From: a candidate division LCP-89 bacterium
Lineage (GTDB): Bacteria; Electryoneota; B3-LCP
Assembly (NCBI GenBank): GCA_025774555.1
Contig: JALGVT010000007.1
Coordinates: 17,327 to 81,326 of the forward strand
Direction of reading: 5' to 3'
Length of the DNA: 64,000 bases
Shown: positions 6,623-56,480 of the stretch, piece after piece
Layout: every line of letters begins with the position of its first letter
Position numbering within the stretch: position 1 is the stretch's first letter
Notes under the pieces: model-generated
The model's input: only the letters and a program-made list of their open reading frames with translations
Told to the model about the DNA's origin: nothing
Database searches by the model: none
Made by a program: the position numbers and the translations under genes

Positions 6623-6661
6623 GTCGGGGTTGGGGACACCATAAGCGGAGCCGACCACCGG
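6623..6661. repeat. Expanded P2-type REP-like palindrome (gtcggggttggggacacca..gcggagccgaccacc)
   Basis: homologous to the in-frame element at 53049..53092; lies in a 500-bp ORF-free intergenic region. Confidence 0.5.
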
Positions 6662-8068: not shown

Positions 8069-8084
8069 GCAGTCTCCTAAGAAG

Positions 8085-9821: not shown

Positions 9822-9907
9822 TTTGTTTTCATCCTTATCTGCATAAGAAATCAGCCTGCCGATTCAAACTTGTAAATAGCAAGTCAGGTTCTTAGAATAC
9901 ACGTTAT

Positions 9908-11668: not shown

Positions 11669-11738
11669 AATGGGTACTTTCCTGCCTCCTTATTACTATA
11701 ACACTCGAAAACTGCGAGCGGGTTTCCATCGAGTGAAA

Positions 11739-27830: not shown

Positions 27831-29492
27831 ATGCGTAACACCGTCATTTCCATTCTCATACTGGGCGTGTTGACCGTTACGGGTAACTCCCAGACTATCG
27901 TCCCCGGTGGACCTGTGTCCGGGACCTGGACACAGGCGGGATCGCCCTACTTGATCGAAGGGGAAATTACCATCCCCGATGGAGAGACATTGAACGTAGC
28001 TCCTGCTGTGGAAGTCATTTTTCAGGGGCATCATAAGTTCATCGTTAATGGATACCTGGAAGCCACCGGGACAGCAGAGGATTCGATTATATTCACAGCA
28101 GCAGATACGAGCGAAGGCTGGCACGGCATTCGGTTCAACCATGCTCCTGATAGCAGCCACTTAATATTCTGCATCGTTCAATATGGTTATGCCACAGGGA
28201 GTGATCCTGAAGATTGGGGTGGTGGAATCCATATCTATAACTCAAATCCAGTCATTAGCCACTGCTTAATTGAGAGGAATTCGGCTGTGGTTGGCGGCGG
28301 GATTTGCTGCTGGTATTCCAATCCCACCATCGAAAACTGCATTATCAGCGAGAACACGGCTACGGGCGTCGGCGCCGTAGCTGGCGGTATTTATGGTTGG
28401 GAATCCAACCCAACCATCAATCAGTGTGTCATCACCGGGAATTTCGGCGGGGGAATCTACTCCTATGAGTCTGCTAACCCAATCATCAGTCAATGCACTA
28501 TTACCTGGAACGCCGGAGGGATTTATTGCAATGACTCTAGCCCAACCATTTCAAACTGCACGATTATTGGGAATTCGGCTAGTGATGCCGGAGGCGGGAT
28601 CACCTGTGCCTGGGGTTGCAACTCGATCATTTCTAACTGCATTATCAGCGGGAATTCGTCCATAAATGTTGGCGGCGGAATCGGCTGCTGGGATTCTGCC
28701 CCGACCATCGAAAACTGCACCATCAGTGGGAATTCAACTGGTATAGGTGGCGGTGGAATTTACTGCGAGCATGAACACGGCCCGACGATTGTGAATGTAA
28801 TTGTAGAAGGTAACATTGGAAATGGAGGCATTTACTTCAATGATTCCCCAAATGTGACTATCACCTACGGGGATTTTTACAACAACGAAGGGAGTAGTTT
28901 TATAGGAAATACCATACCTGCATATTTAGGTGAAATCGTAGCCATTAACACCAACGGCGATTCGTGTGACATTTTCTTCAATATCTACGAGGATCCATTG
29001 TTCGTTAACGAACCCTTAAGCGACTATCATCTCTCACCGGACTCTCCCTGTATAGACGCCGGGAATCCTTTTGTGCAATACAACGACCCGGAAGACCCTC
29101 TAACCCCCGGATATGCCCTCTGGCCAGCACAGGGAACGATCCTGAATGATATGGGAAACTCTGGAGGGCCTGGAGCAAGGGATTGGGTCGTAGGAATCAA
29201 GAAGAACCCCAGCTCGAGATCTGTGCCTTCTATTTTTAATTTACAGCAAAACTACCCCAATCCCTTTAATCCCTCGACGGTTCTCAGTTATCAGCTGTCA
29301 GTGGTCAGCAATGTTACCCTGTCGGTTTACGATGTGTCGGGGCGGAAGGTGGCCGAACTGGTGGATGGCTGGAGGGATGCGGGGCAATACGAGGTTACTT
29401 TCGATGCTTCCCACCTCCCTTCAGGTATCTATTTCGCTCGGCTGACGGCTGGAGATTTCACCTCTACTGGCAAGATGATTCTTATGAAATAA
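27831..29492 (+). CDS. Secreted parallel beta-helix repeat protein with T9SS C-terminal sorting domain
   Basis: paralogous N-terminus to 22318 gene (IVPGGPVSGTWTQAGSPYLIEGEI), GGGI(Y/C)C repeats, CTD YPNPFNPSTVLSYQLS...GKMILMK. Confidence 0.8.
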   Translation: MRNTVISILILGVLTVTGNSQTIVPGGPVSGTWTQAGSPYLIEGEITIPDGETLNVAPAVEVIFQGHHKFIVNGYLEATGTAEDSIIFTAADTSEGWHGIRFNHAPDSSHLIFCIVQYGYATGSDPEDWGGGIHIYNSNPVISHCLIERNSAVVGGGICCWYSNPTIENCIISENTATGVGAVAGGIYGWESNPTINQCVITGNFGGGIYSYESANPIISQCTITWNAGGIYCNDSSPTISNCTIIGNSASDAGGGITCAWGCNSIISNCIISGNSSINVGGGIGCWDSAPTIENCTISGNSTGIGGGGIYCEHEHGPTIVNVIVEGNIGNGGIYFNDSPNVTITYGDFYNNEGSSFIGNTIPAYLGEIVAINTNGDSCDIFFNIYEDPLFVNEPLSDYHLSPDSPCIDAGNPFVQYNDPEDPLTPGYALWPAQGTILNDMGNSGGPGARDWVVGIKKNPSSRSVPSIFNLQQNYPNPFNPSTVLSYQLSVVSNVTLSVYDVSGRKVAELVDGWRDAGQYEVTFDASHLPSGIYFARLTAGDFTSTGKMILMK

Positions 29493-29504: not shown

Positions 29505-29563
29505 TGTCATTCCGGGCGACGAACCGGGATCCGGTAGGGGCAACGCGTGCGTTGTCCTTTTTT
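29505..29563 (+). terminator. 3' element: tgtcattcc motif + GTAGGGGCAACGCGTGCGTTGTCC hairpin + T6
   Basis: same architecture as 1787..1851. Confidence 0.55.
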
Positions 29564-36005: not shown

Positions 36006-37523
36006 ATGTCGAAGCTAATTACTTTCTTCATCGCTTTCGCGATATTGATCCCTTCTTCCTTTGCTGCAACGATTCATGTCCCCGGGAATTATGCCACAAT
36101 ACAAGCTGGTGTAAACGCAGCAGCCAATGGTGATACCGTACTTGTTGGACCGGGAACGTACACCGAAAGCGTTACCATTCAGAACGTTACCATCCATCTT
36201 CTTACCTCAAACGGACCGGACGCGACCAAGATTATAAGAACCGGCTCCGGATTGATCAGCTGTCTGACCGTCTATACATCTTCTGAAATCAGAGGTTTCA
36301 CGCTTGAGCGATCTGGCGCGTATTTGACGGCTGCTACACTCCAGGTTCTCGATGGAAGCCCGCTCGTTCATCACAATCTCATCAAATGTATCGCAGAAGG
36401 TGTGATCTGCGTGGAGATTGCAGGATCCGGCTCGCCTCAATTTCTGAACAATACTCTGTATGGATTGGATGATGACTTCAATTACGGATTCAAAGTCACT
36501 TCATCGGCAGTCTGCCCGACGATAAAAAACAACATCGTCTACTTGAATCCTTCGATTTTCGGGCCGGAATACGGTATTTACAATCAGGCTGGCGCCGCCA
36601 TCATTCATACGTACAATGATTTCTACCAATGCACTTTATCCGGAACCTCTCTGGGGTTGGGTGAGATTCAAACCAATCCACTGTTTGTCGGGGGAAGTCC
36701 GTACTCCTATCACCTTCAATCAAACTCCCCCTGCATTGACACGGGAGTCCCTATATTTACCGACCCGGACTTCACGCGAAGCGACATGGGATGCTTCTAT
36801 TATGATCAGGGCACATTATCCGTCAATGTAACCGTAACCCTGACACCGGATACCATTCCTGTGCAGATTCCTGCTTCTGGAGGTAGTTTTGACTATAACA
36901 TCGCCGTTGCGAACCCTGAAGCCTTCTCGGTTCCAGCTAATGTGTGGTTTATGATAACTCTTCCGAGCGGTGTGTTGTGGGGCCCTATACAGAACCCAAT
37001 TAACGTGAACCTAAATGCTGGTTTTAGCGGCAATCGTGACAGGACCCAATTTATACGAGGCTCCATATCGCCAGGCAGCTATACTTATCACGCGTATATC
37101 GGTCTTTACCCCGGCATAATCTGGGATCACTCCTGCTTTGGCTTTGAGAAATTGATCACCGGCGGTGAATCAGAAGTGTATGATTGGTACTGCACTGGTG
37201 AAAGCTTCGATGAGTGGCAGACTACACCTGAGATTGATATCTCAGCTGAATTTAACTTGCGAGGCGCGTACCCCAATCCCTTTAATCCCTCGACAGCTAT
37301 CAGCTATCAGCTTTCAGCGCTCAGCTTTGTGAACCTTGCTGTTTATGATCTATCGGGACGGAAAGTTGCCGAACTGGTCAATGGCTGGCGGGATATTGGC
37401 AGCCACGAAGTAACCTTTGACGCTTCTGATCTGTCATCCGGCATGTATTTGTACAAACTTCATGTGTCGGGGTCAGGGGTGATCCCGACTATTGATACCG
37501 GTAAGATGGTGCTTATGAAATAA
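36006..37523 (+). CDS. Secreted pectate-lyase-fold beta-helix protein with pre-CTD module and T9SS C-terminal sorting domain
   Basis: TIHVPGNYATIQAGVNAAANGDTVLVGPGTY N-terminus; CTD YPNPFNPSTAISYQLS...GKMVLMK. Confidence 0.8.
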   Translation: MSKLITFFIAFAILIPSSFAATIHVPGNYATIQAGVNAAANGDTVLVGPGTYTESVTIQNVTIHLLTSNGPDATKIIRTGSGLISCLTVYTSSEIRGFTLERSGAYLTAATLQVLDGSPLVHHNLIKCIAEGVICVEIAGSGSPQFLNNTLYGLDDDFNYGFKVTSSAVCPTIKNNIVYLNPSIFGPEYGIYNQAGAAIIHTYNDFYQCTLSGTSLGLGEIQTNPLFVGGSPYSYHLQSNSPCIDTGVPIFTDPDFTRSDMGCFYYDQGTLSVNVTVTLTPDTIPVQIPASGGSFDYNIAVANPEAFSVPANVWFMITLPSGVLWGPIQNPINVNLNAGFSGNRDRTQFIRGSISPGSYTYHAYIGLYPGIIWDHSCFGFEKLITGGESEVYDWYCTGESFDEWQTTPEIDISAEFNLRGAYPNPFNPSTAISYQLSALSFVNLAVYDLSGRKVAELVNGWRDIGSHEVTFDASDLSSGMYLYKLHVSGSGVIPTIDTGKMVLMK

Positions 37524-37534
37524 AACGCAGAATG

Positions 37535-37589
37535 TGTCATCCCGGACTAGATCCGGGATTGAGTAGGGGCGAGATCACCTCGCCCCTAC
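37535..37589 (+). repeat. 3' element: tgtcatcc motif + hairpin (tcccgga/tccggga) + P1-variant GTAGGGGCGAGATCACCTCGCCCCTAC
   Basis: perfect 12-bp GTAG-headed palindrome. Confidence 0.6.
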
Positions 37590-37684: not shown

Positions 37685-40600
37685 GTGAAAAAGATAATCG
37701 CTGTTACTATTGCGCTTTTATCGATGGCTGCAGTATCATACGCTATCACGCTTCATGTTCCAGGAGAATATCAGACCATTCAGGGTGCGGTTGATGCAGC
37801 TAACCATGGAGACACTGTACTCGTTGCCGCAGGAACCTATGAGGAGAGCGTCATCATTGAGGATGCTGCTATATGCCTCATGAGCGAGGATGGTGCGCGC
37901 GTTACCAGAATTATGGTGATGGGCAGCAGCAACGACCACGTTGTTGCAGTGCACAACTCTTCCGAGATTTCAGGCTTCTACCTTTATCGTGCTGCGTCTT
38001 ATTGGTCGGGCGCTTCACTCAAGGTGTACGATGGAAGTCCTTACGTCCATCACAACCTCATAGTATGTAATTCCGAAGGCGCATGCTGTGTTGAAATCGC
38101 CGGTTCTGGAACGCCCTTATTCCTTAACAATTCACTGGACTGCCCGGTAACTCCTGACGCTACTTATGCCTGGGGCTTTCATATCTCTTCAGCGGATGCT
38201 GTCCCGACCATGAAGAATAATATCGTACGCGCGCCTGACTGGGGATGGGATCCGGGTTATTGTATTTACAATCAGGCTTACGCAGATCTCAATCATACCT
38301 ACAACGATTACTACATCGGCACTCTGTACGGCACACAGCTTGGATTAGGCGAAATTCAGGAAAATCCGCTATGGGGCGGTGTATGGCCCTCATACGATCT
38401 GACGTCGAATTCACCCTGCATCGATGCTGGTATTCCTACCTTACTTGATCCCGATTCGACACGGAGCGATATGGGGTGTTTTTACTATCATCAAATAACC
38501 TACCCCCCAACCATCACATCAACACCCGATACGATGGGTTTCGCCGGTCTTCCGTATTCCTACCAATTAGTTTTTGATGCTAACCCGTTTCCAGAATTTG
38601 AATTGTTGACATATCCAGCAGGAATGACAGTTGATACTGCCGGTCTGATTGAGTGGAATATACCTGTCACTGCCGTGTACGATACCGTTGTCAGTGTGCG
38701 AGCCTACAATATCTTTGGTGAGGATTTGCAGGAATATCCCCTGCATGTTCTTGAAAATACCAACCATCCTCCAGAAATCACTACCTATTCACCATTAGTT
38801 CTGGACAGCCTGGATTATCGCGATGAAGTCGAATTCTCAATCACGGCGATCGATCCAGATCTCGATCCCTTGACCTATTCCTGGGAATTGAATGGTGAGG
38901 AGATATCTACTGATACGAGTTGTACGATCAGCTTTTCAGTACTTGGCAATAATGAACTCACAGCCCGTGTCTCCGATCCCTGGGAATCGGACAGCGTTAG
39001 TTGGCAGCCGTTTGTTCGGGGTACAGCTGTGAGTGGTAATGTGAGCGGCACCTGGATCAGTGCTGCGAGTCCGTACGTTGCCTCATCGGATATCACCATT
39101 CCAACCGGCGCTACACTCGTTATGGCGCCCGGTACAGTTCTATATCTCGGCGATAGTACTCATTTGATTGTACAGGGACACTTAGAGGTGGTGGGTGTTG
39201 AAGCCGACTCCGTTTATATACTAAAGGACGGGATGGCTTCCAGCGGCGGTGTCAGGCACGTCCAATCAGCTACATCTTCATCTTTGATTTCATATTGCAG
39301 AATTGAGGCTGGAAGCTGGTGTGTTTCAGCGGATAATGTTGGAGCCCAATCGATTGCAGTTTATAACAGCCATCTCCAGGCTGCCTATGGTATCCATACT
39401 GCGAATGTGGAAAACATTGAGGCGCGGGATTGCCGGATTATCGCCTTGAATACCGGTGTTTATTCATATTCTATAAATATAGTTACTGTTGTGGATTGTG
39501 AATTCAGCATAGGTAAAGGAGTCTATATTAATGGGGCATATAATGTACAAGTAATCAATAACGTATTTGACGTTAACAATATCGCAATCAGTGTGCATGG
39601 CGGGTCAAGTATCTGTCTTATTGAAGGTAATGAGATTCACACTTCGTATTATATCGGTATCGAAGCGTGGGGATGTCTGCAGGATATATTGCTGACGCGA
39701 AATATGCTCTACGTGGTAGGAACGCCTGCCTGGGATTCTTATGCATTCCATATTGTGGATAGCGACGTCGAAATCCTGAATAATACTGTCGTATTAGAAT
39801 ACCCGGGGCGAGTTGTCACTATCGGATCAACCTATGGATCGGTGAATGTTCGTAATAATATCATGTACGGTGCAGGGGGAGGACCTGCCATCTATGCCTA
39901 CGCTGTAAGTCCAAACAGTGTCATCGAATATAACGATTTTTTTGGATTCGATTCACTGTATTACCACGTCTCACCCGGCGAAGGTAATGTTACCGAAGAT
40001 CCTCTCTTTGTGGGCGGTGATCCGTATTCCTACGAATTGCAGGCGGGCTCACCCTGTATCGATGCAGGCGATCCAACCAGTCCGCCTGATCCGGATTACA
40101 CCAGGGCGGATATGGGTGCTTACTACTTCAATCAAGGATTTGCACCATCACTTGAAGTGAACCTGACACCTTATAATCCACCTGTTCAGGTACCGGCTTC
40201 CGGTGGAAATATCGATTTCAACATCGAAGCAGGCAATACCGGATCGAGCCTTGCTACTTTCAGTATCTGGTGTGATATTACACTTCCCAACGGTAACAGC
40301 TATGGGCCAGTGCTGGGTCCGCTTAGCGTCACAATGAATGCAGGGTGGAGTGCTGATCGTGATCGAATCCAACAGATTCCTGCGATTGCTCCGGCAGGTG
40401 TTTACAGTTACAGCGCCTACGTGGGGATCTACCCGGACATTGTGGCTGATATGGACAGTTTTGATTTCGAGAAGCTGACAACGGGTGATGGGCCGGTCGT
40501 TATCGGGTGGTTGAACAGTGGTGGAGATTTCGATCTCTGGATGGTGGGCACGCCTGATCTGATTCCCGCAGAATTTTCGTTAGAGACAGCCTATCCCAAT

Positions 40601-40831
40601 CCGTTCAATCCTACGACAATTTTAAATCTACAGTTGCCTGAAGCTGCTGACGTGAAACTACACGTCTATAACATCAGAGGCAGTCTGGTGGCAGTATTGA
40701 TAAATGGCTGGAGAGATGCGGGATCCCACGAAGTGGTATTCGATGGTTCGACTCTCTCTTCCGGTATCTACATCTATCGCCTGCAAGCCGGCGAACACCA
40801 CGAGGTCGGCAGGATGGTGCTGATGAAGTAA
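37685..40831 (+). CDS. Large secreted beta-helix protein (paralogue of 36006 gene) with T9SS C-terminal sorting domain
   Basis: GTG start, signal peptide, ITLHVPGEYQTIQGAVDAANHGDTVLVAAGTY, pre-CTD module homologous to 36006 gene, CTD YPNPFNPTTILNLQLP...GRMVLMK. Confidence 0.8.
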   Translation: MKKIIAVTIALLSMAAVSYAITLHVPGEYQTIQGAVDAANHGDTVLVAAGTYEESVIIEDAAICLMSEDGARVTRIMVMGSSNDHVVAVHNSSEISGFYLYRAASYWSGASLKVYDGSPYVHHNLIVCNSEGACCVEIAGSGTPLFLNNSLDCPVTPDATYAWGFHISSADAVPTMKNNIVRAPDWGWDPGYCIYNQAYADLNHTYNDYYIGTLYGTQLGLGEIQENPLWGGVWPSYDLTSNSPCIDAGIPTLLDPDSTRSDMGCFYYHQITYPPTITSTPDTMGFAGLPYSYQLVFDANPFPEFELLTYPAGMTVDTAGLIEWNIPVTAVYDTVVSVRAYNIFGEDLQEYPLHVLENTNHPPEITTYSPLVLDSLDYRDEVEFSITAIDPDLDPLTYSWELNGEEISTDTSCTISFSVLGNNELTARVSDPWESDSVSWQPFVRGTAVSGNVSGTWISAASPYVASSDITIPTGATLVMAPGTVLYLGDSTHLIVQGHLEVVGVEADSVYILKDGMASSGGVRHVQSATSSSLISYCRIEAGSWCVSADNVGAQSIAVYNSHLQAAYGIHTANVENIEARDCRIIALNTGVYSYSINIVTVVDCEFSIGKGVYINGAYNVQVINNVFDVNNIAISVHGGSSICLIEGNEIHTSYYIGIEAWGCLQDILLTRNMLYVVGTPAWDSYAFHIVDSDVEILNNTVVLEYPGRVVTIGSTYGSVNVRNNIMYGAGGGPAIYAYAVSPNSVIEYNDFFGFDSLYYHVSPGEGNVTEDPLFVGGDPYSYELQAGSPCIDAGDPTSPPDPDYTRADMGAYYFNQGFAPSLEVNLTPYNPPVQVPASGGNIDFNIEAGNTGSSLATFSIWCDITLPNGNSYGPVLGPLSVTMNAGWSADRDRIQQIPAIAPAGVYSYSAYVGIYPDIVADMDSFDFEKLTTGDGPVVIGWLNSGGDFDLWMVGTPDLIPAEFSLETAYPNPFNPTTILNLQLPEAADVKLHVYNIRGSLVAVLINGWRDAGSHEVVFDGSTLSSGIYIYRLQAGEHHEVGRMVLMK

Positions 40832-40842
40832 CACACAGAGTG

Positions 40843-40937
40843 TGTCATCCTGGACTTGATCCGGGATCCAGAAAATGTCGGAGTCGGGGACGACTCCGAC
40901 TACGGAGAGGTAGGGACGCACGCTGGTGCGCCTTTTT
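40843..40937. terminator. 3' element: tgtcatcc + hairpin + P2 palindrome (40877..40905) + GTAGGGACGCAC-GCTG-GTGCGCC + T5; bidirectional terminator with convergent leuC
   Basis: stem-loops and T-tract read directly. Confidence 0.55.
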
Positions 40938-44967: not shown

Positions 44968-45068
44968 GAATCCAACCTACAAAAGCTGGATCACGGAAAA
45001 ACTCGGATTATTCGGATTGCGCGGATGAATGTTACGTGGTGGTAGGGGCGAGGTTACCTCGCCCCTAC
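44968..45068 (+). repeat. 101-bp direct repeat copy 1 (ends with P1 REP 45042..45068)
   Basis: ~95% identical to 47234..47334; flanks the 45262..47160 gene. Confidence 0.7.
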
Positions 45069-45178: not shown

Positions 45179-45261
45179 GCACGAGAAAAGCATTGCTTTT
45201 CATCCAGATAATAAATATATTTAGCAAACCCAAATCCGTCCCAACTAATTTGAGGTGCAAA

Positions 45262-47160
45262 ATGCAGAGACAACTCTACCTACTACTACTAATTCTTCTA
45301 ATCATTCCAACGCTCCTGATTGCTGCTCCAGCGAATGTAAGACCAATGTATCCCCTGCCGCCTATCTTCACCGGGCTTGAGGATGTGCCGGATAACATTC
45401 CAGTCGTTCATCCGCCCTATAATCTATCTGATATCGATGGTATCGACATATTGGGTGATACCGTCACAGTGGGCGACACCTGGTATGAATACCAGCATAA
45501 CGCTACGATCGGCAGACAGATCAGGTTAAGCGATGACGGTTACATTCACATGGTCTGGACCAAAGGTGAAGATGAACCATCCAACAACCGGCATATCTAT
45601 TACAACTACATCGATCCATCAGGTCAACAGGGTTGGCAAGGCAGTGGATATGCCGTAGAATCTTCACAACGCGGTGGTTTTACCAGCCTTGCAGTAGGCT
45701 GGGATGGCATCGCATTCCCGGCTTTTCACCAGGTTACAGGAACGAATGCTCACACAGCGGTCGCCACTGACTTCTTCCCCCATGCGGGAGCGTTCCTAGT
45801 TTATGAAATACCTTGGTACAACGGGCAAGACCTGGAATATATCTGGCCCAGAATTACGATGAAAACGGATGGTGAAATACTCGTCACCAGCGTAGGCAAC
45901 TCCGATCCCACGGGCGCTTCAGGCATGACCTGGTCAATGGGAACCTATGATCCTCTGACATACAGCATAAGTTATACTCCACAGATATTATGCGGACCTT
46001 TTACCCATATTTCTAATGAAGTCGGGGCATCGCGAGTGTCCAACCGAGTCGGTAGCGCTTACTGCGCACCGCTTGAAAACGACGTAGGTGGATGGGATGT
46101 CCACGCGATGATTGACAACGATGGTCTGGACTTGAATTTCGATAACTACTGGAACGTTACGAAGTTCATGGAGCCTGATCTCGCCTGGCTGCCGGATACT
46201 CTTATGGCTAATGCGGACACACTTCGAGCCTACTGTGACGTTTCCATGTTTTACGACATGGATGACTACTGCCACATCGCTTTCACAACCTGCCGCTGGT
46301 TTGAACTGGAAGGCGGTCTGGTTTATTGGAACGCTTCGCTGATCTGGCACTGGTCGGAACGCTGGCCCAACGATTATCATGTCATCGCAAACGCCTTTGA
46401 CCCAGATAGTTTTGTCGATTGCGGCGGTTGGAATTTCCGTGGTCAACGCCCGTCCCTTGGTCAGGATCCTGAAACCGGTTACCTCTATTGTATGTACCAG
46501 GAATTCGACGTCGATTCAACTGCGATTTCTCTGGGCGGTTGGCCCTCAGGCGAGGTTAAAATATCGGTTTCGACCGATAACGGCGCGACCTGGTCAGTGG
46601 GAACGAACATCACCAATACGGTTACACCAGAAAATGCTCCCCCAGGAGAATGCCTCTCTGAAGCGTATCCCTCTATGGCGGAAGTAGTTGACGGCAACTG
46701 TCATGTCCTGTATGTTCTCGACTTAGATGCAGGCGCATTCCTTCAGACTGAAGGAACCATTACACTTAATCCCATCATCTACCACAAAGTGCCGGTCGAT
46801 CTCATTCCGACGTCGCCGACAGTGGAGAACCTGACATTCCACGTGGCGCATACCGGACCGGTAGTATCGACAGAGCCGGAAGATGAAGCAAAACTAACGA
46901 AGTTTGCGCTACAGCAGAACAATCCCAATCCTTTCAATCCGAACACGACGATACAGTTTTCGCTGGAAACCATAAGCGATATCCGTCTATCGGTGTACAA
47001 TCTGAGGGGTGAGCTGATATCCACACTCGCTGATGGAGCTTTTTCAGCCGGGATACACACCATCGCTTTCGACGGCAGCCGTCTCTCTTCAGGCTTGTAC
47101 GTTTACCGTCTTGAAACGGAAGGCAAATGTCTCCAGAAGAAGATGCTGTTACTAAAGTAG
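45262..47160 (+). CDS. Secreted BNR-repeat protein with T9SS C-terminal sorting domain
   Basis: RBS gaggtg; signal peptide MQRQLYLLLLILLIIPTLLIAAPA; SVSTDNGATWSVG BNR motif; CTD NPNPFNPNTTIQFSLE...KKMLLLK (ORF-track start 45193 is upstream, in-frame). Confidence 0.65.
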   Translation: MQRQLYLLLLILLIIPTLLIAAPANVRPMYPLPPIFTGLEDVPDNIPVVHPPYNLSDIDGIDILGDTVTVGDTWYEYQHNATIGRQIRLSDDGYIHMVWTKGEDEPSNNRHIYYNYIDPSGQQGWQGSGYAVESSQRGGFTSLAVGWDGIAFPAFHQVTGTNAHTAVATDFFPHAGAFLVYEIPWYNGQDLEYIWPRITMKTDGEILVTSVGNSDPTGASGMTWSMGTYDPLTYSISYTPQILCGPFTHISNEVGASRVSNRVGSAYCAPLENDVGGWDVHAMIDNDGLDLNFDNYWNVTKFMEPDLAWLPDTLMANADTLRAYCDVSMFYDMDDYCHIAFTTCRWFELEGGLVYWNASLIWHWSERWPNDYHVIANAFDPDSFVDCGGWNFRGQRPSLGQDPETGYLYCMYQEFDVDSTAISLGGWPSGEVKISVSTDNGATWSVGTNITNTVTPENAPPGECLSEAYPSMAEVVDGNCHVLYVLDLDAGAFLQTEGTITLNPIIYHKVPVDLIPTSPTVENLTFHVAHTGPVVSTEPEDEAKLTKFALQQNNPNPFNPNTTIQFSLETISDIRLSVYNLRGELISTLADGAFSAGIHTIAFDGSRLSSGLYVYRLETEGKCLQKKMLLLK

Positions 47161-47233: not shown

Positions 47234-47334
47234 GAATCCTACCTACAAAAGCTGGATCACGGATAAGATCGGATTATTCGGATTGCGCGGATGAATGTTG
47301 CGTGGTGGTAGGGGCGAGGTTACCTCGCCCCTAC
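47234..47334 (+). repeat. 101-bp direct repeat copy 2 (ends with P1 REP 47308..47334, followed by CTAC-rich tail)
   Basis: see copy 1. Confidence 0.7.
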
Positions 47335-49405: not shown

Positions 49406-51151
49406 ATGGTAATAAAGATATACGGTTTTTGTATGCGCGTATCAGCCCTCCTGATATTCGTTCTTACGGTTAGCTCTCCTTTATCCGCCCAGGTCATCGA
49501 AGAATGGGTTATAAGAGAAAACGGACGCGGCAACGGTCCGGATTATGCGAAGGATATAGTTATCGATCAAGATGGCAACATTATTGTTACCGGCTATTGC
49601 GATCGTTCGCTTCATCCTGATTGGGTTGACTATGATTTTGCCACAGCAAAATATGACAATTCCGGCAATACTATCTGGATTGCGCGTTATCCCGGTCTCG
49701 TTGACGAAAACGATAAAGCTTACGCGTTAGCCCTGGATGAAGCGGGCAACGTCTATGTGACCGGCGCTGGCAGCGGTCACGCTGATGATTACACTACGAT
49801 CAAATATAACTCCGATGGAGTTCAACAGTGGATGGCGCAATATACGAGTCCAGGCAATTACTATGATAAACCTAATGCGATAGCTGTGGACTCTGAAGGC
49901 AACGTCTACGTTACGGGATACAGTAACACGAGATCGTTCTATAATCACGATTACACCACTATTAAGTACAACTCCTCGGGTCAAGAGCAGTGGATAGCAA
50001 TTTATGATGGCACTGGCGGTGAAGATGATGAAGCGAAAGCAATTGTAGTTGACACAGACGGAAACGTCTACGTTACAGGTGATTGTTATGACGAGCATTT
50101 TTCCAACTACTGCATGACCATCAAGTATGATCCCGGGGGCAACAGAGTCTGGACAGCAGCTTACCATTTCCAGTTTGCCAACATAGGCTATGCCATAGCT
50201 GAAGATATGGTGCTGGACAACGCGGGCAACGTCTATATTGCCGGCTATCACGGTGATGAACGAGACTCCGAATTCCTCGTCGTGAAGTATGATTCGTTCG
50301 GCGTGGAACAGTGGGCTGAGCATATAAGTGCCAGCGGGGGCAGTTATGATTACTGTCATGCCATGACGATCGACGCTGACGCCAATCTGTACGTCACTGG
50401 TGAAGGATTCTGCAGTACCACAGATTATGTTACTATCAAACTTGATTCCGATGGAAATGTGGAGTGGATATCGTCATACGACGGGAACTGGGGTGGAGAT
50501 GATAGCGCGAACGATATAGTGGTAGATGCTGAAGGTAATGTCTACGTTACGGGAGAAAGTGAGATAGGGGCATATACTTACGAGTACGCTACTGTGAAGT
50601 ACGATCCCAACGGAGATGAAGAATGGGTTATGATTTATCCGGACAACTTGCCGGATTTCTATAGCAGCAGAGCCAGCGCTATTGCTATGGATAATGAAGG
50701 CAGCGTCTATGTTACCGGAAATTCCTATGTAGCTGAGACAAATTATGATTTTGCCACTGTAAAATACAGCCAGCCATCAGGGATAAAGGATAAAACCGTT
50801 ATCAGCGCCGAACCGTCGAAATTCAGCATAATCAGCGTTTATCCCAATCCATTCAACCCGGCAACAGTTATCAGCTTCGAGTTGCAAGCTGCAAGTTGGA
50901 TTAGATTGGATGTGTTTGGTATAAACGGGCGGAATGTAGGGACGGTAGGGGCGAGGTTACCTCGCCCCTACACGTCGGGGTCAGGGACGACCCCGACTAC
51001 GGGATTCTATCCCCCCGGCATGAACGCCATTACTTTCGATGGAACGGAGCTGACATCGGGGATATATATTTATCGACTTACTGCCGATAATGTGTCGGGG
51101 TCAGGGGCGACCCCGACTACGGCGAGTGGGAAGATAGTGCTGATTAAATAG
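49406..51151 (+). CDS. Secreted SBBP/beta-propeller repeat protein with T9SS C-terminal sorting domain interrupted in-frame by REP-like palindromes
   Basis: RBS aaggggg; signal peptide; ~8 repeats ...GN(V/I)YVTG...; CTD YPNPFNPATVISFELQ... then inserted VGARLPRPY/TSGSGTTPTT and VSGSGATPTTA segments encoded by P1/P2 palindromes; ends GKIVLIK. Confidence 0.7.
   Translation: MVIKIYGFCMRVSALLIFVLTVSSPLSAQVIEEWVIRENGRGNGPDYAKDIVIDQDGNIIVTGYCDRSLHPDWVDYDFATAKYDNSGNTIWIARYPGLVDENDKAYALALDEAGNVYVTGAGSGHADDYTTIKYNSDGVQQWMAQYTSPGNYYDKPNAIAVDSEGNVYVTGYSNTRSFYNHDYTTIKYNSSGQEQWIAIYDGTGGEDDEAKAIVVDTDGNVYVTGDCYDEHFSNYCMTIKYDPGGNRVWTAAYHFQFANIGYAIAEDMVLDNAGNVYIAGYHGDERDSEFLVVKYDSFGVEQWAEHISASGGSYDYCHAMTIDADANLYVTGEGFCSTTDYVTIKLDSDGNVEWISSYDGNWGGDDSANDIVVDAEGNVYVTGESEIGAYTYEYATVKYDPNGDEEWVMIYPDNLPDFYSSRASAIAMDNEGSVYVTGNSYVAETNYDFATVKYSQPSGIKDKTVISAEPSKFSIISVYPNPFNPATVISFELQAASWIRLDVFGINGRNVGTVGARLPRPYTSGSGTTPTTGFYPPGMNAITFDGTELTSGIYIYRLTADNVSGSGATPTTASGKIVLIK
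50945..50971 (+). repeat. P1 REP-like palindrome GTAGGGGCGAGGTTACCTCGCCCCTAC inside CDS (27 nt = 9 codons)
   Basis: identical to intergenic copies at 45042 and 47308. Confidence 0.8.
50974..51002 (+). repeat. P2 REP-like palindrome GTCGGGGTCAGGGACGACCCCGACTACGG inside CDS
   Basis: second copy inside same CDS at 51094..51122; intergenic variant at 40877..40905. Confidence 0.8.
51094..51122 (+). repeat. P2 REP-like palindrome (second intragenic copy)
   Basis: GTCGGGGTCAGGGGCGACCCCGACTACGG. Confidence 0.8.
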
Positions 51152-51225
51152 ATGGTTAAATAGAATGAAGGAAGAAAAAAGACAAGCCCGGGCTTGTCTT
51201 TTTCTTTATCCTAAAAATAATTCCC

Positions 51226-51254
51226 TTGACAAATGGGAAATATTACTTTATATT
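51226..51254 (+). promoter_or_regulatory. Putative sigma70 promoter (TTGACA-17-TATATT) for 51304 gene
   Basis: consensus hexamers. Confidence 0.45.
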
Positions 51255-51303
51255 AGCAGAAGAACCAAACCCGTTAACCAGATGTATCGAGGAGGTTATC
51301 ATA

Positions 51304-53121
51304 ATGCGCAGGTCTGTTCTGATCGTTTCATGTTTCAGTCTATTACTAATCGCTGCTTACAGTGAGGCACAGCCGCAAATCAGCGGACAGTTGAACGGCA
51401 CACTGCGAGCAGGGACGTACATTGTCGTTGGCGATATCGAAGTGGGGGTTACAGATTCATTAATTGTCGAGCCCGGCGTAACCTGTCTCTTCGACAGTAT
51501 TTTCAGCATCCGCATTTATGGATATCTGTACGCGGTCGGCACAGAGACTGACAGCATCATATTTCGTCCCAATGACGGAGTGGAAAGTTTCAACAGCATC
51601 ATCTTCCAGGACGGATCGTCTAACAACAGCGAACTTGGATACACATTCATAACCGGCGCCGCGGGAAGCGCCATCAACGCGTACTATGTCAACGTAACAA
51701 TTTCGCATTGCACGATTTCCGCAAACAGAGCCAACTGGGGCGGCGGGATATACTTTTCAAGCTCTAACGGCGTCATCTCTGATTGTGTCGTCACCGACAA
51801 TACCGCCATCCACAACGGTGGGGGCATTTACTGCACTCACTCCTCGCCAACCATTGAAAACTGCATTGTGCTGCAAAACTATTCCAATTATACTGGCGGT
51901 AACGGCAGCGGCAGGGGAGGCGGAGGTATATGCGCAAATCACGTTTCCAGTCCTTCTATAACGAACTGTATCGTTGATGATAACGTCACTGAGGCGAACG
52001 GCGGCGGCATTGCCGTTAATGACAATTCCAACGTGACTATTCTGAACTGCACGATGAACAACAACAGCGCCGACAGCAGCGGTGGGGGTCTTTACATCAG
52101 CGCCAACTGTACGCCTGTCGTCCGCAACTGTGAAATGCACTCCAATTCCACCGAGATGAACGGCGGGGGAATCTGCCTTGAAACCAACGTTCCGGCGATC
52201 ATTGATAGCTGCACCGTTCATTCGAACACAGCGGCTTGGAATGGCGGAGGGGTCGCTCTCCTGTACACCGATCCAGAAATCAGCCGCTGCGAAATTTATG
52301 ACAATGAGGCAACTCACGGCGGCGGTTTATATTCATTTAAAAATGATTCAACCGAGATCATCCACTGCACTTTCAGCGGTAACGACGCGTTGCAGCAGGG
52401 CGGCGGAGTAGAACTGGATAGCAGCAAGGTGCAGATCAGTAACACAATCGTCGAAGGAAGCACCGGCAATGGCGGAATACACTTTTCTGACTCGGACACG
52501 TCAACGGTGGCATACTGTGATTTCCACGATAATTTAAATGGTGATTTCACAGGAACGCCGCCGGCAAATTTAGGTATTATAACGACTGTCAATGCCAACG
52601 GCGATACCTGCGATGATTTCTTTAACATCTTCCTCGATCCGCTCTTCGTCGACCCCGTAAGCGGGGATTTCAATCTGCAGGAGAACTCGCCGTGCATTGA
52701 TGCGGGTGACCCGGAAAGTCCACAAGATCCTGACGGTACTGTTGCGGATATTGGTGTTCATTATTATGAGATCACCAGCATTCGAGATCAGCAGGAATCT
52801 CATCTGCCTGCGATGATTTCTGTATCAAATTACCCCAATCCCTTCAATCCCACCACCACCATCCGCTTTGATCTGCCGGTTGCCAGCCAGGTCAGGTTGG
52901 AGGTGTTTGATATTAATGGGCGGAATGTTACCAGCAGCCAGCCACCAGCAACCAGCAACTCTTACCCCCCCGGCAAGCAAGCCATCACCTTCGATGGATC
53001 GGGGCTGGCATCGGGAATATACATTTATCGACTTACTGCTGATAAATTGTCGGGGTCAGGGGCACCACAGGCGGAACCGACCACGACTACGGCGAGTGGC
53101 AAGATGGTGCTGATTAAATAG
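51304..53121 (+). CDS. Secreted parallel beta-helix repeat protein with T9SS C-terminal sorting domain carrying degenerate in-frame REP insert
   Basis: start at ATG 51304 after ggagg RBS (ORF-track start 51226); ISGQLNGTLRAGTYIVVGDI N-terminus paralogous to 33194 gene; GGGI(Y/C) repeats; CTD with low-complexity insert TSSQPPATSNS and expanded P2 at 53049..53092. Confidence 0.75.
   Translation: MRRSVLIVSCFSLLLIAAYSEAQPQISGQLNGTLRAGTYIVVGDIEVGVTDSLIVEPGVTCLFDSIFSIRIYGYLYAVGTETDSIIFRPNDGVESFNSIIFQDGSSNNSELGYTFITGAAGSAINAYYVNVTISHCTISANRANWGGGIYFSSSNGVISDCVVTDNTAIHNGGGIYCTHSSPTIENCIVLQNYSNYTGGNGSGRGGGGICANHVSSPSITNCIVDDNVTEANGGGIAVNDNSNVTILNCTMNNNSADSSGGGLYISANCTPVVRNCEMHSNSTEMNGGGICLETNVPAIIDSCTVHSNTAAWNGGGVALLYTDPEISRCEIYDNEATHGGGLYSFKNDSTEIIHCTFSGNDALQQGGGVELDSSKVQISNTIVEGSTGNGGIHFSDSDTSTVAYCDFHDNLNGDFTGTPPANLGIITTVNANGDTCDDFFNIFLDPLFVDPVSGDFNLQENSPCIDAGDPESPQDPDGTVADIGVHYYEITSIRDQQESHLPAMISVSNYPNPFNPTTTIRFDLPVASQVRLEVFDINGRNVTSSQPPATSNSYPPGKQAITFDGSGLASGIYIYRLTADKLSGSGAPQAEPTTTTASGKMVLIK
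53049..53092 (+). repeat. Expanded/degenerate P2 element inside CDS
   Basis: gtcggggtcaggggcaccacaggcggaaccgaccacgactacgg; homologous to intergenic 6623..6661. Confidence 0.6.
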
Positions 53122-53148
53122 CCGTTAGCCGTTGGCAGTTAGTGTTTA

Positions 53149-53175
53149 GTAGGGGCGAGGTAACCTCGCCCCTAC
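53149..53175 (+). repeat. P1-variant REP GTAGGGGCGAGGTAACCTCGCCCCTAC just after stop codon, convergent with AsmA-like gene
   Basis: perfect 12-bp palindrome. Confidence 0.75.
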
Positions 53176-53198: not shown

Positions 53199-56100
53199 TT
53201 ACAGGTTGGCTGTTACAGGTGTGTTTAAGAAGAACTTAAGGGGAACTCTCCCGAATGTTATCGACTTGCCCAAACCGATCAGGCGGGAGAGGATAAACAT
53301 ATCCAGTTTGGTGATGGGAGGCTTCAAGGGTATAATTGAAGTATAGACAAAATCGTCTTTGACGCCGAAGGTGAAGACTTTGACGCCCCATCCCCTTTTC
53401 AAGTAGCCGCGATAGGTCTGGATGGATGGATCGGTTTGATTCGGGTCCATAAAGCGGAGCAGGTTGTCTGCAACCTGTCTTCCAATGCGGGTAATGTCAA
53501 CGCTGCCTGCAAGGTCGAAGTGTCCATTTGGATTGATCCCCTGACCTGAGAATCTGGCGAAGGCAGATATCTGATTGTCTTCGCCTTTTTTCGCCTTCGA
53601 TTGACGAAGCAATGCAGTATTTATTTCATGCGCGCTGACTCGCATCCAGTACCCGATTGAATCCGGGATCATAACCGGAAAACTTACTTCAAATGCTCCT
53701 TTTAACACCCCGTCATAAGCATCCACCTTAAGCCCGGGAGATTCCAGTCGGTCCTGTTGAAAACTGATAATCCCTTCTAAATTGCTCACATTATAATCTG
53801 TATAGCGCAGCAGTCCGCAAGATACCGTTCCATAGGTTTTGTTCGCTGGAAAGAGGTGTTCATTGCTTGCAAATAGAACAGGGTCGCTGGACGTAGCATA
53901 GGTATCGGAATTAGCGCCGAAAGCAACGCCGTTCGAATCAATTACAAACGTCGTTTCATAGGGCATATACAGGTTCAAGTCTTCAAGTCTAAATTCATCT
54001 GCATAAGTAGCTGTCAGATTATTGCATTCTATCTCTCCGGTTAATTCATACTTTCCACTTTCTGAAAGCAGTAAATCACAAGCCAGTTCGCTTTCTCCCG
54101 CTAACTGCACCTCATTAGTGAGGTTGATCAGACTATCTGAGTGAAACTGCAGCCCCAACTTCGCCTGTCCCAGTATTTCTTCCTTACTGATCTTTAAGAT
54201 TACGTCACCGGAAGTTTCCAATCCAAGCTGTGACAGATTCGTTTGGAAGGAGACAGAGGCTTCCTGTTCCTCGAGATCGAAACTGCCATCCCAGCTCGCT
54301 TTGATCTGTCTGTAAGGTTTACTGCTGACCATCTCACTGACCAGTTTTCCAATCTCGATTTCGCCGCTCGACGACAGACAGTCCTTATTCCCGGCGAATG
54401 TGGAAGAGAATACGATTGAATCAACCGTAGATTTATAATAAGGCAGCTTTAAGGCGATATTTTCCGTATCGACGTCTATCTGATGATGAAACTCCGCTTT
54501 ATCGGGATTTAAGTTTCCAGATGCCTCGCCTGAAAAATGCAGATCGCCGGTCAGGATCAGATCGGTGAGGTTTTCAGGCAGCAAAGTATTAAACAGCGGG
54601 GCGATTTCGGTGAAATCAGCTTCCAAATCAAGCGAACTTATATCCCATGATCCATCGGTTTTGTAGGAGCAGACCAGGGAGGCATCTCCGTAAGGATCAA
54701 TTTCTACTTTTAACTCTTCAAACTTCAATTGACCAAAGTTTTCAGATAGGTTCCAGCGTGACTCGCTATGCGCCATCAGAGGCGGAATACTTACTGTATC
54801 AGTATCAATGCAGAGAGTCAAATCGGGGCACAACACCCCGATTCCCACTTCAATATCGTTTAAACCACGAAAAACAAAATCAGCCGCAGCTGACAGACTG
54901 CCGGATCCCCTATCCCGAACGAATTTATCCAATGGGAGATCCTTAATTGAACAGCCTCCGCGAATTGCCAGACCGGAGGATGCAAGTGGATCTTCTCTAT
55001 TCAAGCGTTTAATCTGTATATTTACGTCACCTTTTTGATCGCTTTGGAAGGGACCTTTTCCCGCCCAGCGCAATTCGACGTCGAGGTTCTCCAAGTCCTT
55101 ATCTGCGCTGGCAGTCAGCGATGATTTCAGATCGGTGATCACTAACGGTTCGGCGTCAATTCCCGTGGTTTCCACAGAACAGAGATAGGCGTCAGCGTCC
55201 AGTATGAAACTAATATTTTCTGCTGGATAAACAGCGCCGCGGTAAGATAGATCAAAATTAAAGCCCTGCGCTCGCAGGGGTAAAGAGCCGTGAGTTAAAC
55301 CAGCGTTAATTATTGCCAAGTTCACAACTGCTTCCAGTTCAGGATTCGCTCCCAGCATGGTTCCGGTCAGGAGCGAGTTTTCAATTCTGATCAATCCCGT
55401 AATATTAACATCATCAAGGATAGATTCCCAGCCGATCATCGATAAGAAACCGCGGATTATAGGAAGCCAATCATCGATAAAAACTTTTCCTTCATGAACC
55501 TGCAGATTCAAACGCGGATATCCCAGAATATCACCAATCTCAGCAGAAGCGACTAAGATTGTATCTCCTCCGAAAAGCAGCCTGATATCATCGATATTCA
55601 GATCATTGAAGTCTATCAGGTTAGCATTGGCAGATAATGCAATTTCCGATAAACTGAAATCATTGATGGCATTGTCGAGCAATACAGCGTTAAATTCCGG
55701 CAGGCATCGTAAAGCTATATTCAGAGATTTAAGCGCGGGATCAAGCGATCCCGTGGCGTTCAGGTTGAAATACGATCTCGAATTCAGGTTGAAAACATCG
55801 CTTATATATGCCAGGGTTATCGTGTCTTCTGAACCCAAGGTGAACTGCCCGGAATAATCGGTAGAATCTACGATATGGATTTGCTTCGCTTCAAGGAATA
55901 TTCCATTTAATTCGGTTTTAATAGTACCTTCAGTTGAATGAGCTGTAATCGCCGCTCTGGCATTTTCAACGGTCAGGTTATCGATTTCAAGCTTAATGGG
56001 TAAACTGAATCCGAAGGAGGGTTGTGTTACATCGTTGGAAGCTAATTGGATGACCGATTCTTTATCTGAATCGCGCGAAGACGAGTGTAGATCGGCGCTC

Positions 56101-56480
56101 TTCCCAGATTCGATTACATGATCATAAGTTACTTGGGGATTGACGATTGTGAGTCGTAGGATCACCAATTTCCGCTGGAATAATGGCAGCAGTCTATAAC
56201 GCAGGGAAATGCTCTCAATCGCGGCAATCCGCGCTCCTGTTGAGTCTTTCAGAGTGATCCCTTCGAGGCGCGTGTCACTGAGAAAATGAAAACTACCGTC
56301 CTCGATGTCAAGCTGCATACCGAGAGCGGCAGATACATTTTTTTCAATTTTGTGAATAATGAATGAATCAGGAAGGTATAACCGGCGACCGAGAATCAAG
56401 AAGAGAAATAGACAGAAGCCGATAATAAGCGCGTAGATAAATCTCTTTTTCCAGACTTTTCTCTCCATTACATTATCCAA
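53199..56480 (-). CDS. Large membrane-anchored AsmA/TamB-like protein (hypothetical)
   Basis: 1093 aa, single N-terminal TM, long beta-rich D/S/N/L-rich body; 22-nt gap to purL suggests co-transcription. Confidence 0.4.
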   Translation of the reverse strand: MDNVMERKVWKKRFIYALIIGFCLFLFLILGRRLYLPDSFIIHKIEKNVSAALGMQLDIEDGSFHFLSDTRLEGITLKDSTGARIAAIESISLRYRLLPLFQRKLVILRLTIVNPQVTYDHVIESGKSADLHSSSRDSDKESVIQLASNDVTQPSFGFSLPIKLEIDNLTVENARAAITAHSTEGTIKTELNGIFLEAKQIHIVDSTDYSGQFTLGSEDTITLAYISDVFNLNSRSYFNLNATGSLDPALKSLNIALRCLPEFNAVLLDNAINDFSLSEIALSANANLIDFNDLNIDDIRLLFGGDTILVASAEIGDILGYPRLNLQVHEGKVFIDDWLPIIRGFLSMIGWESILDDVNITGLIRIENSLLTGTMLGANPELEAVVNLAIINAGLTHGSLPLRAQGFNFDLSYRGAVYPAENISFILDADAYLCSVETTGIDAEPLVITDLKSSLTASADKDLENLDVELRWAGKGPFQSDQKGDVNIQIKRLNREDPLASSGLAIRGGCSIKDLPLDKFVRDRGSGSLSAAADFVFRGLNDIEVGIGVLCPDLTLCIDTDTVSIPPLMAHSESRWNLSENFGQLKFEELKVEIDPYGDASLVCSYKTDGSWDISSLDLEADFTEIAPLFNTLLPENLTDLILTGDLHFSGEASGNLNPDKAEFHHQIDVDTENIALKLPYYKSTVDSIVFSSTFAGNKDCLSSSGEIEIGKLVSEMVSSKPYRQIKASWDGSFDLEEQEASVSFQTNLSQLGLETSGDVILKISKEEILGQAKLGLQFHSDSLINLTNEVQLAGESELACDLLLSESGKYELTGEIECNNLTATYADEFRLEDLNLYMPYETTFVIDSNGVAFGANSDTYATSSDPVLFASNEHLFPANKTYGTVSCGLLRYTDYNVSNLEGIISFQQDRLESPGLKVDAYDGVLKGAFEVSFPVMIPDSIGYWMRVSAHEINTALLRQSKAKKGEDNQISAFARFSGQGINPNGHFDLAGSVDITRIGRQVADNLLRFMDPNQTDPSIQTYRGYLKRGWGVKVFTFGVKDDFVYTSIIPLKPPITKLDMFILSRLIGLGKSITFGRVPLKFFLNTPVTANL

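Follow-up and report, generated by a model that had tools for sequence, protein, structure and literature searches.

In-frame REP elements within type IX sorting-domain genes of a candidate division LCP-89 bacterium

Sorting-domain genes of the window and their palindromes

The DNA analyzed here, called the window, is a 64,000-nucleotide stretch (positions 17,327 to 81,326) of contig JALGVT010000007.1 from a candidate division LCP-89 bacterium, and its subject is a set of short palindromes of the repetitive extragenic palindromic (REP) type that are read in frame within genes for secreted proteins. Eleven open reading frames (ORFs) of the window terminate in a type IX secretion system (T9SS) C-terminal domain (CTD) of type A, with the signature PNPFNP...GR.V...G.HEVTFD...SGIY.YRL...GKMVLMK. 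Nine of these CTDs are canonical and measure 78 residues from PNPF to the end. The other two belong to neighboring genes on the forward strand. Gene 1 (49406..51151) encodes an SBBP beta-propeller cargo protein (Pfam SBBP) with a signal peptide and a type A CTD that is interrupted at two sites. Gene 2 (51304..53121) encodes a parallel beta-helix cargo protein (Beta_helix match) with a signal peptide and CTD inserts at both sites. By inspection, the N-terminal Sec signal peptides are MRVSALLIFVLTVSSPLSAQ in gene 1 and MRRSVLIVSCFSLLLIAAYSEAQ in gene 2. Both proteins finish in ...SGK(I/M)VLIK, with the conserved Lys near the C-terminus. An earlier note on this DNA, made from the letters alone, had reported four palindromes that run through the CTD coding sequence of these two genes without breaking the frame, and both the coordinates and the read-through of all four check out.

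The CTDs of genes 1 and 2 were aligned with the nine canonical CTDs of the window, as that note had proposed. The inserts lie at two places: after GRNV in the s3-s4 region, which we call site A, and between YRL.A.. and TASGK in the s6-s7 hairpin loop, which we call site B. Gene 1 has 16 additional residues at site A and 8 at site B; for gene 2 the corresponding values are 4 and 13. A third gene, 36006..37523, has 5 additional residues at site B and none at site A. On both sides of every insert, the CTD resumes in frame and in register. Recognition of these domains was judged by two profile hidden Markov models (HMMs), PF18962/Por_Secre_tail with a cut-off of 27 bits and TIGR04183 with a cut-off of 23 bits. 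Full-length gene 2 protein scores 37.2 and 34.9 bits, respectively, and gene 36006..37523 scores 34.6 and 37.5 bits, all of which lie above the cut-offs.

Three of the four palindromes are in gene 1. A type-1 REP of 27 nt with 13-bp arms and the tags GTAG...CTAC occupies 50945..50971 (+) at site A and is read as VGARLPRPY. It is followed at the same site by a type-2 REP, a 24-nt palindrome plus TACGG, at 50974..51002 (+), which is read as SGSGTTPTT. A further type-2 REP at 51094..51122 (+) fills site B and is read as SGSGATPTT. In gene 2, an expanded type-2 relative at 53049..53092 (+) fills site B, where it is read as SGSGAPQAEPTTT; its hairpin is weak (z -1.4), and its segment 53049..53084 matches the intergenic copy at 6623..6658. 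Site A of gene 2 holds a low-complexity insert, TSSQPPATSNS (52930..52962, +), that is unstructured and contains no palindrome. We considered whether it represents a repeat family of its own and ruled this out, as it occurs once in the window and is unstructured.

Altogether, three GTAG/CTAC-tagged REP families contribute 15 copies to the window, 8 of them in frame and 7 intergenic. The in-frame copies affect 6 of the 11 CTD genes, so that the earlier count of two cargo genes was right for both but understated the extent. They are confined to three positions, namely sites A and B and the linker directly upstream of the CTD, which we call site 0. The four copies that had been missed are a type-2 REP at 37466..37492 (+), read as VSGSGVIPT at site B of gene 36006..37523, in which a G.U pair keeps the stem; a type-1-like REP, GGGCGAGG-AGA-CCTCGCCC-CTAC, at 1489..1511 (+), read as GRGDLAPT at site 0 of gene 70..1773; a partly decayed type-3 REP at 23994..24017 (+), read as GDARVVPT at site 0 of gene 22318..24279; and a type-3 REP, GGGCGACGC-A-CGCGTCGCCC-CTAC, at 32525..32548 (+), read as GDARVAPT at site 0 of gene 29877..32810. 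The CTDs of the three site-0 genes are otherwise canonical. All eight copies that lie in coding sequence are inside a CTD or no more than about 15 codons from one. Of the coding DNA, about 5% belongs to the CTDs proper (with the short upstream linker, we estimate about 6%), and the chance of such a placement is about 1e-6 if five independent events are assumed.

Five of the seven intergenic copies lie 28 to 148 nt past the stop codon of a CTD gene. These are a type-1 variant at 37563..37589 (no strand assigned), 40 nt past the stop of gene 36006..37523; a type-2 REP at 40877..40905 (+), 46 nt past the stop of gene 37685..40831; a type-1 REP at 47308..47334 (no strand assigned), 148 nt past the stop of gene 45193..47160; a type-1 REP at 53149..53175 (no strand assigned), 28 nt past the stop of gene 2; and a type-3 REP at 29534..29557 (-), 42 nt past the stop of gene 27831..29492. 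The remaining two are a type-1 REP at 45042..45068 (no strand assigned) and the expanded type-2 relative at 6623..6658 (+). Sequence matches thus confirm each of the intergenic copies that had been proposed at 45042, 47308, 53149, 40877 and 6623. Two further families of short repeats, GTGTCATCCYGGACTWGATCCGGGAT and TCGGATTATTCGGATTGCGCGGATGAATGTT, occur among the intergenic REP clusters (about 37530-37556, 40838-40866, 45000-45030 and 47266-47296), and together with the REPs they form mosaics downstream of CTD genes that resemble bacterial interspersed mosaic elements (BIMEs).

The arms of the palindromes are 13 bp long in type 1 and 9-10 bp long in types 2 and 3. Type 1 starts with GTAG and finishes with CTAC, and type 3 likewise finishes with CTAC. 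When folded as RNA, the REP hairpins give z values from -3.5 to -6.8. The type-1 sequence GTAGGGGCGAGGTTACCTCGCCCCTAC has identical or one-mismatch copies at 45042, 47308 and 53149 and a two-mismatch copy at 37563. The type-2 29-mer GTCGGGGTCAGGGRCGACCCCGACTACGG is found at 50974 and 51094, and the copy at 40877 differs from it by three mismatches, with its stem kept by compensatory G>A/C>T changes. The type-1 pattern did not occur once in 100 shuffled sequences, and none of the patterns reported here arises in shuffles.

Identity of the elements and evidence for their insertion

REPs are small, non-autonomous hairpin repeats that are thought to be mobilized in trans by Y1 (HUH) transposases of the REP-associated tyrosine transposase (RAYT) type. 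The window palindromes belong to the GTAG/CTAC-tagged REP elements. Among 129 metagenomic type-2 copies, T follows the palindrome in 127, A comes next in 128 and then C in 108, and beyond the palindrome and this TAC there is no conservation upstream or downstream. A longer type-2 unit reaching into GGGATTCT, which is common to site A of gene 1 and the left end of contig L194, was considered and is refuted by these 129 copies, in which only TAC(GG) is kept. Contig L194 also carries a RAYT gene (NF047646, 101.9 bits against a cut-off of 80) that is flanked by inverted copies of GTCGGGGTCAGGGGCGACCCCGACTACGG, the same 29-mer that lies at 51094..51122 of the window, and contig L132 is arranged likewise. 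This arrangement (L194:424-952 and L132) is a classical REPtron. Given the GC-rich GTAG/CTAC hairpins, the mostly intergenic location of public type-1 and type-2 copies and the exact 29-mer beside a RAYT gene, the REP-like nature that the earlier note had assigned to the palindromes is borne out.

The type-1 27-mer GTAGGGGCGAGGTWACCTCGCCCCTAC occurs letter-perfect in more than 114 loci (L001-L114 among them) across distant phyla, which is striking in that a REP family is usually confined to one lineage. Its hosts include Poribacteria, Anaerolineae/Chloroflexota, Planctomycetota, Zixibacteria, Latescibacterota and Calditrichota, and further hosts are Uhrbacteria of the Candidate Phyla Radiation (CPR), Acetothermia, Nitrospiria, Thermodesulfobacteriota and one cyanobacterial isolate. 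In about one third of these loci, the copy lies inside a long ORF, several of which clearly encode real proteins, and is read as VGARLPRPY or RGEVTSPL. Because the 27-mer abounds in phyla without T9SS CTDs (Chloroflexota, CPR, Cyanobacteria), we ruled out that the palindromes were born of CTD coding sequence. A diversity-generating retroelement or another form of programmed variation was also rejected, as the in-frame sequences are identical to ordinary intergenic REPs; no template/variable repeat pair and no reverse transcriptase was noticed, in an analysis that made no search aimed at them.

Some of the ORFs that hold the type-1 27-mer are themselves RAYT/IS200-like Y1 transposase ORFs, in which it is read as RGEVTSPL right after the HUH motif MPNH.HGII... 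(L101:42-641, L039:3012-3400 and L062:2494-2862, all on the + strand). The ORF in L101 is complete, and its 72.5 bits with NF047646 fall short of the 80-bit cut-off; the transposase frames of L039 and L062 stop at the palindrome. At this linker, related ORFs in L039 and L048 contain palindrome-like peptides of other kinds. Residence of a REP inside its own transposase gene could explain the conservation of type 1 across phyla. In-frame REPs also occur in unrelated real proteins (L178, L227, L198, L142, L206, L054 and L088), in line with the intragenic REPs described in PMC3733652. Of these, L178 and L227 encode orthologous proteins that have type 2 together with differing type-1 variants, and among the last five are proteins that we take by eye to be an FlhF-like GTPase, a histidine kinase, a UvrD-like helicase and an FNR-like reductase. 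The presumed histidine kinase carries the unit VVGVVPDPD in tandem.

Several findings support true insertion of the palindromes, and at site B the direction of the change can be read. A full-length orthologue of gene 2, P0303, is 63% identical over 589 residues, and its site B is empty and canonical (...YRLAAGDF-TASGKMVLMK) in place of the 13 residues that gene 2 has in addition. The site A of P0303 holds a decayed type-3 REP, GTAGGAGCGACGCGTGCGTCGCCC, at the codon where gene 2 holds TSSQPPATSNS. The pair is thus polymorphic for presence and absence at site B and differs in content at site A. In contigs L115 and L119, a type-2 REP stands between GRRV and an intact canonical strand, ALV(N/D)GWR.AG. 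When the inserts are excised in silico, the isolated CTD of gene 1 improves its TIGR04183 score from 26 to 38.5 bits and that of gene 2 from 38.3 to 45 bits, and the whole profile is then matched in both cases. Since type 1 and type 2 with their tags each measure 27 nt, or nine codons, a simple insertion leaves the frame unshifted.

The same architecture recurs in dozens of unrelated NCBI, JGI, ENA and Logan assemblies. A profile search gave thousands of CTDs, of which we examined 165, and 42 of these have REP-like peptides that begin at the Val of GRxV. Examples of these site-A peptides are VGARLPRPY, VGARHAVPLQ, VGAKLASPL, VGVGLAPTR, VGAIHELPL, VGFGESDL and SGSGATPT. At least six different palindrome-derived peptides begin at this one Val codon in many assemblies, which agrees with the insertion hot spot suggested by the earlier note, and the search for further in-frame copies for which it called has found them both in the window and in dozens of metagenome assemblies. 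Site-A REPs are single or stacked; some are net additions, and in others the canonical length is kept. Within CTDs, each element is used in one reading frame only, VGARLPRPY for type 1 and the linker-like SGSG(A/T)TPT for type 2, even though four frames of type 2 are open. The flanks of CTDs with inserts are similar to one another, with nearest-neighbor clustering of 88% against a null of 25%; since sequences with inserts had served to build the search profile, this value is biased, and we place no reliance on it.

The exact type-1 27-mer begins at the same Val codon in L017, L043 and L116. The CTD flanks in these contigs are 60-71% identical to those of gene 1 at the nucleotide level, with synonymous sites saturated; among sequences so diverged, 27/27 identity would arise by chance with a probability of about 1e-6 to 1e-4. 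The 27-mer has therefore either newly arrived each time or stayed uniform through conversion or selection, and does not represent an old insert under neutral drift. Downstream of the stop codon of P0064, L117:437-600 contains a collapsed pseudo-CTD in which ...VFDIAGKRV is joined via GTAGGGGTCGGGGGCGACCCCGAG nearly straight to ...KMVLMK*, hinting at a deletion between the site-A REP and the 3' end of the CTD and at a capacity of resident REPs to promote rearrangements.

A public contig from a related strain, L118 (JGI 3300033143, Ga0366829_1139843), is 98-99% identical to the window. It encodes P0300, a strain variant of gene 2 with the same CTD and 99.7% nucleotide identity, from an independent assembly, and it keeps the intergenic type-1 REP at 53149. 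L118 lacks segment 49190..51197, which comprises gene 1 together with a promoter region and terminator of its own, and has about 40 unrelated bp there instead (L118:786-826), so gene 1 is a strain-variable accessory gene. A protein identical to that of gene 1, P0179, is encoded on a public contig of 208,667 bp. The precomputed public Pfam record of P0179 lists propeller repeats only, without PF18962; the sorting domain is missing from this routine annotation because the REP inserts hide it. Two further differences between the strains were seen: L118 is missing a 34-codon beta-helix repeat of gene 2 (52165..52265) and a 169-nt segment (53264..53432) at the 3' end of the minus-strand ORF 53199..56480, which alters the C-terminus of that protein. 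Near its N-terminus, the product of the same ORF matches GspN weakly, with 32 bits, which does not reach the cut-off. Elsewhere on the minus strand, 6818..13163 holds what we judge by eye to be a type II secretion/type IV pilus-like set with PilC-, PilB- and secretin-like members.

Probable tolerance of the inserts and the explanations weighed

Comparison of gene 1 with gene 2 over 70 non-insert CTD codons gives dS (synonymous divergence) of 0.74 and dN (nonsynonymous divergence) of 0.13, and thus dN/dS of about 0.17. As the lineages of both genes bear inserts, the CTD has been under purifying selection with the inserts in place. AlphaFold2 models built from the same alignment have seven strands both for a canonical neighbor, with a predicted local distance difference test (pLDDT) value of 86.5, and for the gene 1 CTD, with a value of 78.5. 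In the gene 1 model, residues 44-59 (VGARLPRPYTSGSGTT) form a low-confidence, disordered loop, in which the VGARLPRPY residues have pLDDT values below 50. Strand s4 is cut from KVAELVNGWR to TTGF, and the site B insert merely lengthens the s6-s7 turn. A Foldseek search of the Protein Data Bank with this model returned generic immunoglobulin-like sandwiches only, with E values above 1e-3, and no T9SS CTD was among the top hits.

Published work on T9SS bears on how such changes might be received. The s6-s7 loop of the RgpB CTD is open to proteases and can even extend for strand swapping, and the linker before the CTD tolerates insertions (PMC4804311). In translocon complexes, the conserved motifs of the CTD determine its fold, while the plastic binding pocket touches poorly conserved surface; the same study addresses the role of the conserved C-terminal Lys (PMC10994853). 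Given the dN/dS of about 0.17, the retention of the fold in the AlphaFold2 model, the flexibility of the insert regions and the plasticity of translocon recognition, we favor a tolerated loop extension over abolished secretion, and on the strength of sequence and model the insert-bearing proteins would probably still be competent for secretion.

The explanation that we prefer, to which we give a probability of about three in four, is that REP insertions have been filtered by selection into the permissive parts of a cleavable signal domain. REPs that are mobilized in trans by a RAYT would gather at the 3' ends of transcription units, and since the CTD forms the last 240 nt or so of about one quarter of the genes here, some insertions would be expected to fall within it. 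Several filters may then act. A unit of 27 nt (nine codons) would preserve the reading frame; only a stop-free phase and orientation that yields an innocuous peptide, such as VGARLPRPY or the Gly/Ser/Thr/Pro-rich SGSG(A/T)TPT, would survive; the position would have to be permissive, as are presumably the passenger-CTD linker, the s3-s4 turn with its edge strand s4 and the s6-s7 hairpin loop; and the host domain would be a disposable one that is cut off after export and recognized by shape rather than by sequence. Once marked by a REP, the s3-s4 site may be inherited within a CTD sub-family by paralogues and orthologues, while its content turns over through further REP insertion, replacement and decay, and a hot spot with several REP families would result. 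Transposition by a RAYT in the source organism, neutrality of the inserts for secretion and this cause of the hot spot are what we infer from the pattern.

Several observations weigh against this explanation. By HUH motif, no RAYT gene was found in the 64-kb window, and no T9SS component was recognized among the window proteins that were scanned. At site A, strand s4 is replaced rather than extended, a larger change than a loop insertion, and the AlphaFold2 model by which the fold was judged was guided by an alignment of canonical CTDs. The full gene 1 protein scores 22.1 bits with Por_Secre_tail and 20.9 bits with TIGR04183, below the cut-offs of 27 and 23 bits, and we found no empty-site orthologue of gene 1, its best relatives being 38-47% identical and of longer architectures. 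Given that a near-identical strain lacks gene 1 and that the gene 1 CTD stays under the thresholds, this gene could be a copy that is decaying or is not secreted. In addition, the hairpins are perfect inside coding DNA and a single frame is used, which could reflect a function or a targeting at the nucleotide level.

This last point leads to an explanation in which the in-frame hairpins are selected for what they do in mRNA or DNA, candidate roles being mRNA stabilization at the 3' end, ribosome pausing or translation control close to the stop codon, transcription attenuation, or recombination that swaps CTD cassettes. REPs are said, in work by Newbury in 1987 and by Liang, Rudd and Deutscher in 2015, to stabilize upstream mRNA and to lower translation near stop codons. 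The hairpins are stable and still perfect within coding DNA, with -44.5 kcal/mol (z -5.7) for type 1 and the adjoining element at site A of gene 1 and -19.6 kcal/mol (z -3.5) in a second case. The stems at 37466 and 40877 have been kept by the G.U pair and the compensatory changes, the 27-mer is identical where CTD synonymous sites are saturated, and the pseudo-CTD of L117 resembles a deletion between the site-A REP and the 3' end. However, identical copies fit recent insertion or gene conversion from intergenic copies equally well, and nine CTD genes of the window manage without hairpins at site A or B. Moreover, many copies have decayed as palindromes with the peptide retained (site B of gene 2, z -1.4; P0106; P0064; site A of P0303), which is the pattern of ageing neutral inserts and argues against selection on the hairpin, an explanation that we consider unlikely. 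We are just as doubtful of a more far-reaching proposal, that in a widespread lineage of type A CTDs from uncultured bacteria of the Fibrobacteres-Chlorobi-Bacteroidetes (FCB) group, s4 has been replaced by a heritable REP landing pad which RAYT-driven turnover keeps rewriting, making a hypervariable, hairpin-encoding sorting signal that is domesticated and not merely tolerated. If it were true, the REP module could adjust cargo expression, through mRNA stability or through ribosomes that pause just ahead of the end of the signal, affect how the translocon and sortase handle the CTD, and promote the exchange of CTD cassettes between cargo genes.

The hot spot could alternatively stem from integration that is targeted by sequence or structure, for example through a RAYT-like enzyme with a preference for GTA-G (Val-Gly/Ala/Asp) after GRx or through a resident REP that attracts other REPs, with post-insertion selection playing a smaller part. 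Every site-A insert begins precisely at the Val codon (GTAGG, read as V-G), GTAG is already present at site A in three of the nine canonical window CTDs, and REP families are stacked in tandem at site A as in BIMEs (gene 1, L017, P0064 and P0076). REPs are, in addition, known targets of other mobile DNA (PMC3733652). Yet in the REP/RAYT literature GTAG belongs to the element and is not a demonstrated target, no conserved sequence flanks the 129 type-2 copies, and type-2 copies in CTDs sit at three positions, also after codons other than GTAG. The Val start is explicable by selection that keeps the conserved GRxV strand, and the apparent clustering of insert-bearing CTDs is inflated by the insert-derived search profile; we regard targeting as an improbable main cause of the hot spot. 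Least credible of all is a non-biological origin, in which the genes would be assembly chimeras formed at repeats, or dead pseudogenes that are open by chance. The assemblies are metagenomic, both CTD and REP sequences are repeated, gene 1 occurs on a single contig, and its CTD scores under the HMM thresholds. Against this, the CTD is in frame and register around every insert, the signal peptides are intact, dN/dS is 0.17, the CTD of gene 2 is identical in the independently assembled strain contig and the architecture is found in dozens of unrelated assemblies. Filtering of REP insertions by selection thus remains the explanation that we prefer.

Significance and comparison with known systems

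In-frame REPs are already known from the Rickettsia palindromic elements (RPEs) and from GTAG/CGTC REPs in repair genes (PMC3733652), and the present results do not overturn current concepts. The recurrent targeting of the CTD across lineages at three sites, with several REP families at one codon, appears to be undescribed, and a limited literature search found no paper that links REPs with T9SS CTDs. The replacement of a beta-strand and the failure of curated HMMs to detect such CTDs are also new here. For REP biology, these CTDs amount to a replicated natural experiment, with dozens of paralogous and orthologous copies of one small domain, different families at one codon and both empty and decayed sites, and the material makes insertion, turnover and selection measurable. 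For T9SS biology, the inserts fit recognition by shape and suggest positions at which tags might be engineered. Because the inserts push real CTDs under HMM thresholds, the T9SS cargo of uncultured phyla of the FCB group is likely to be under-counted.

As members of the T9SS type A family (TIGR04183/PF18962), the window CTDs have the signature, the predicted seven-strand sandwich and the C-terminal position on signal-peptide proteins. Unlike typical members, those that bear inserts have a disordered s3-s4 loop of 16-20 residues, a vestigial s4 and a longer s6-s7 loop.

The REPIN/RAYT and REPtron systems, reportedly described by Nunvar in 2010, Bertels and Rainey in 2011 and Ton-Hoang in 2012, resemble the window elements in that inverted copies of precisely the type-2 unit lie on both sides of a RAYT gene (L194, L132) and in that tag and hairpin match, as apparently does the high copy number. 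In contrast to REPINs, units of the window type are mostly singletons or parts of mixed BIME-like clusters rather than doublets, and the type-1 27-mer, which in some loci resides in a RAYT-like ORF, is shared without change by many phyla; REPINs usually belong to one lineage and pass on by vertical descent.

The earlier note had likened the palindromes to RPEs. The parallel is apt for their behavior, since RPEs, as far as the account of Ogata et al. (2000) given in PMC3733652 extends, are in-frame palindromes in genes that are still functional, with the inserts on the protein surface. Classical RPE-1 elements are longer, at about 100-150 bp, come from other sequence families and have inserted singly into many unrelated genes; RPEs show no concentration in any one domain, and no RAYT partner has been demonstrated for them. 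With units of 27-44 nt that belong to GTAG REP families, the window elements share the in-frame behavior of RPEs and fall outside their family.

A closer precedent is provided by the intragenic GTAG REPs of Di Nocera, De Gregorio and Rocco (2013), who describe GC-rich stem-loops that are RAYT-linked and mostly intergenic at gene 3' ends, some of which, single or grouped, lie wholly inside ORFs, where they encode about 9-30 residues that these authors place in flexible linkers or loops (PMC3733652). The window elements are likewise tagged, GC-rich stem-loops with a 3'-end bias, some of them in ORFs. The targets in that study are mainly DNA replication and repair genes of cultured Proteobacteria, Opitutus and similar organisms, and neither a secretion-signal domain nor a cross-lineage codon hot spot nor a strand replacement is described there (PMC3733652). 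In the window and its relatives, by contrast, a single site in a single domain family of uncultured FCB-group bacteria hosts several alternating REP families.

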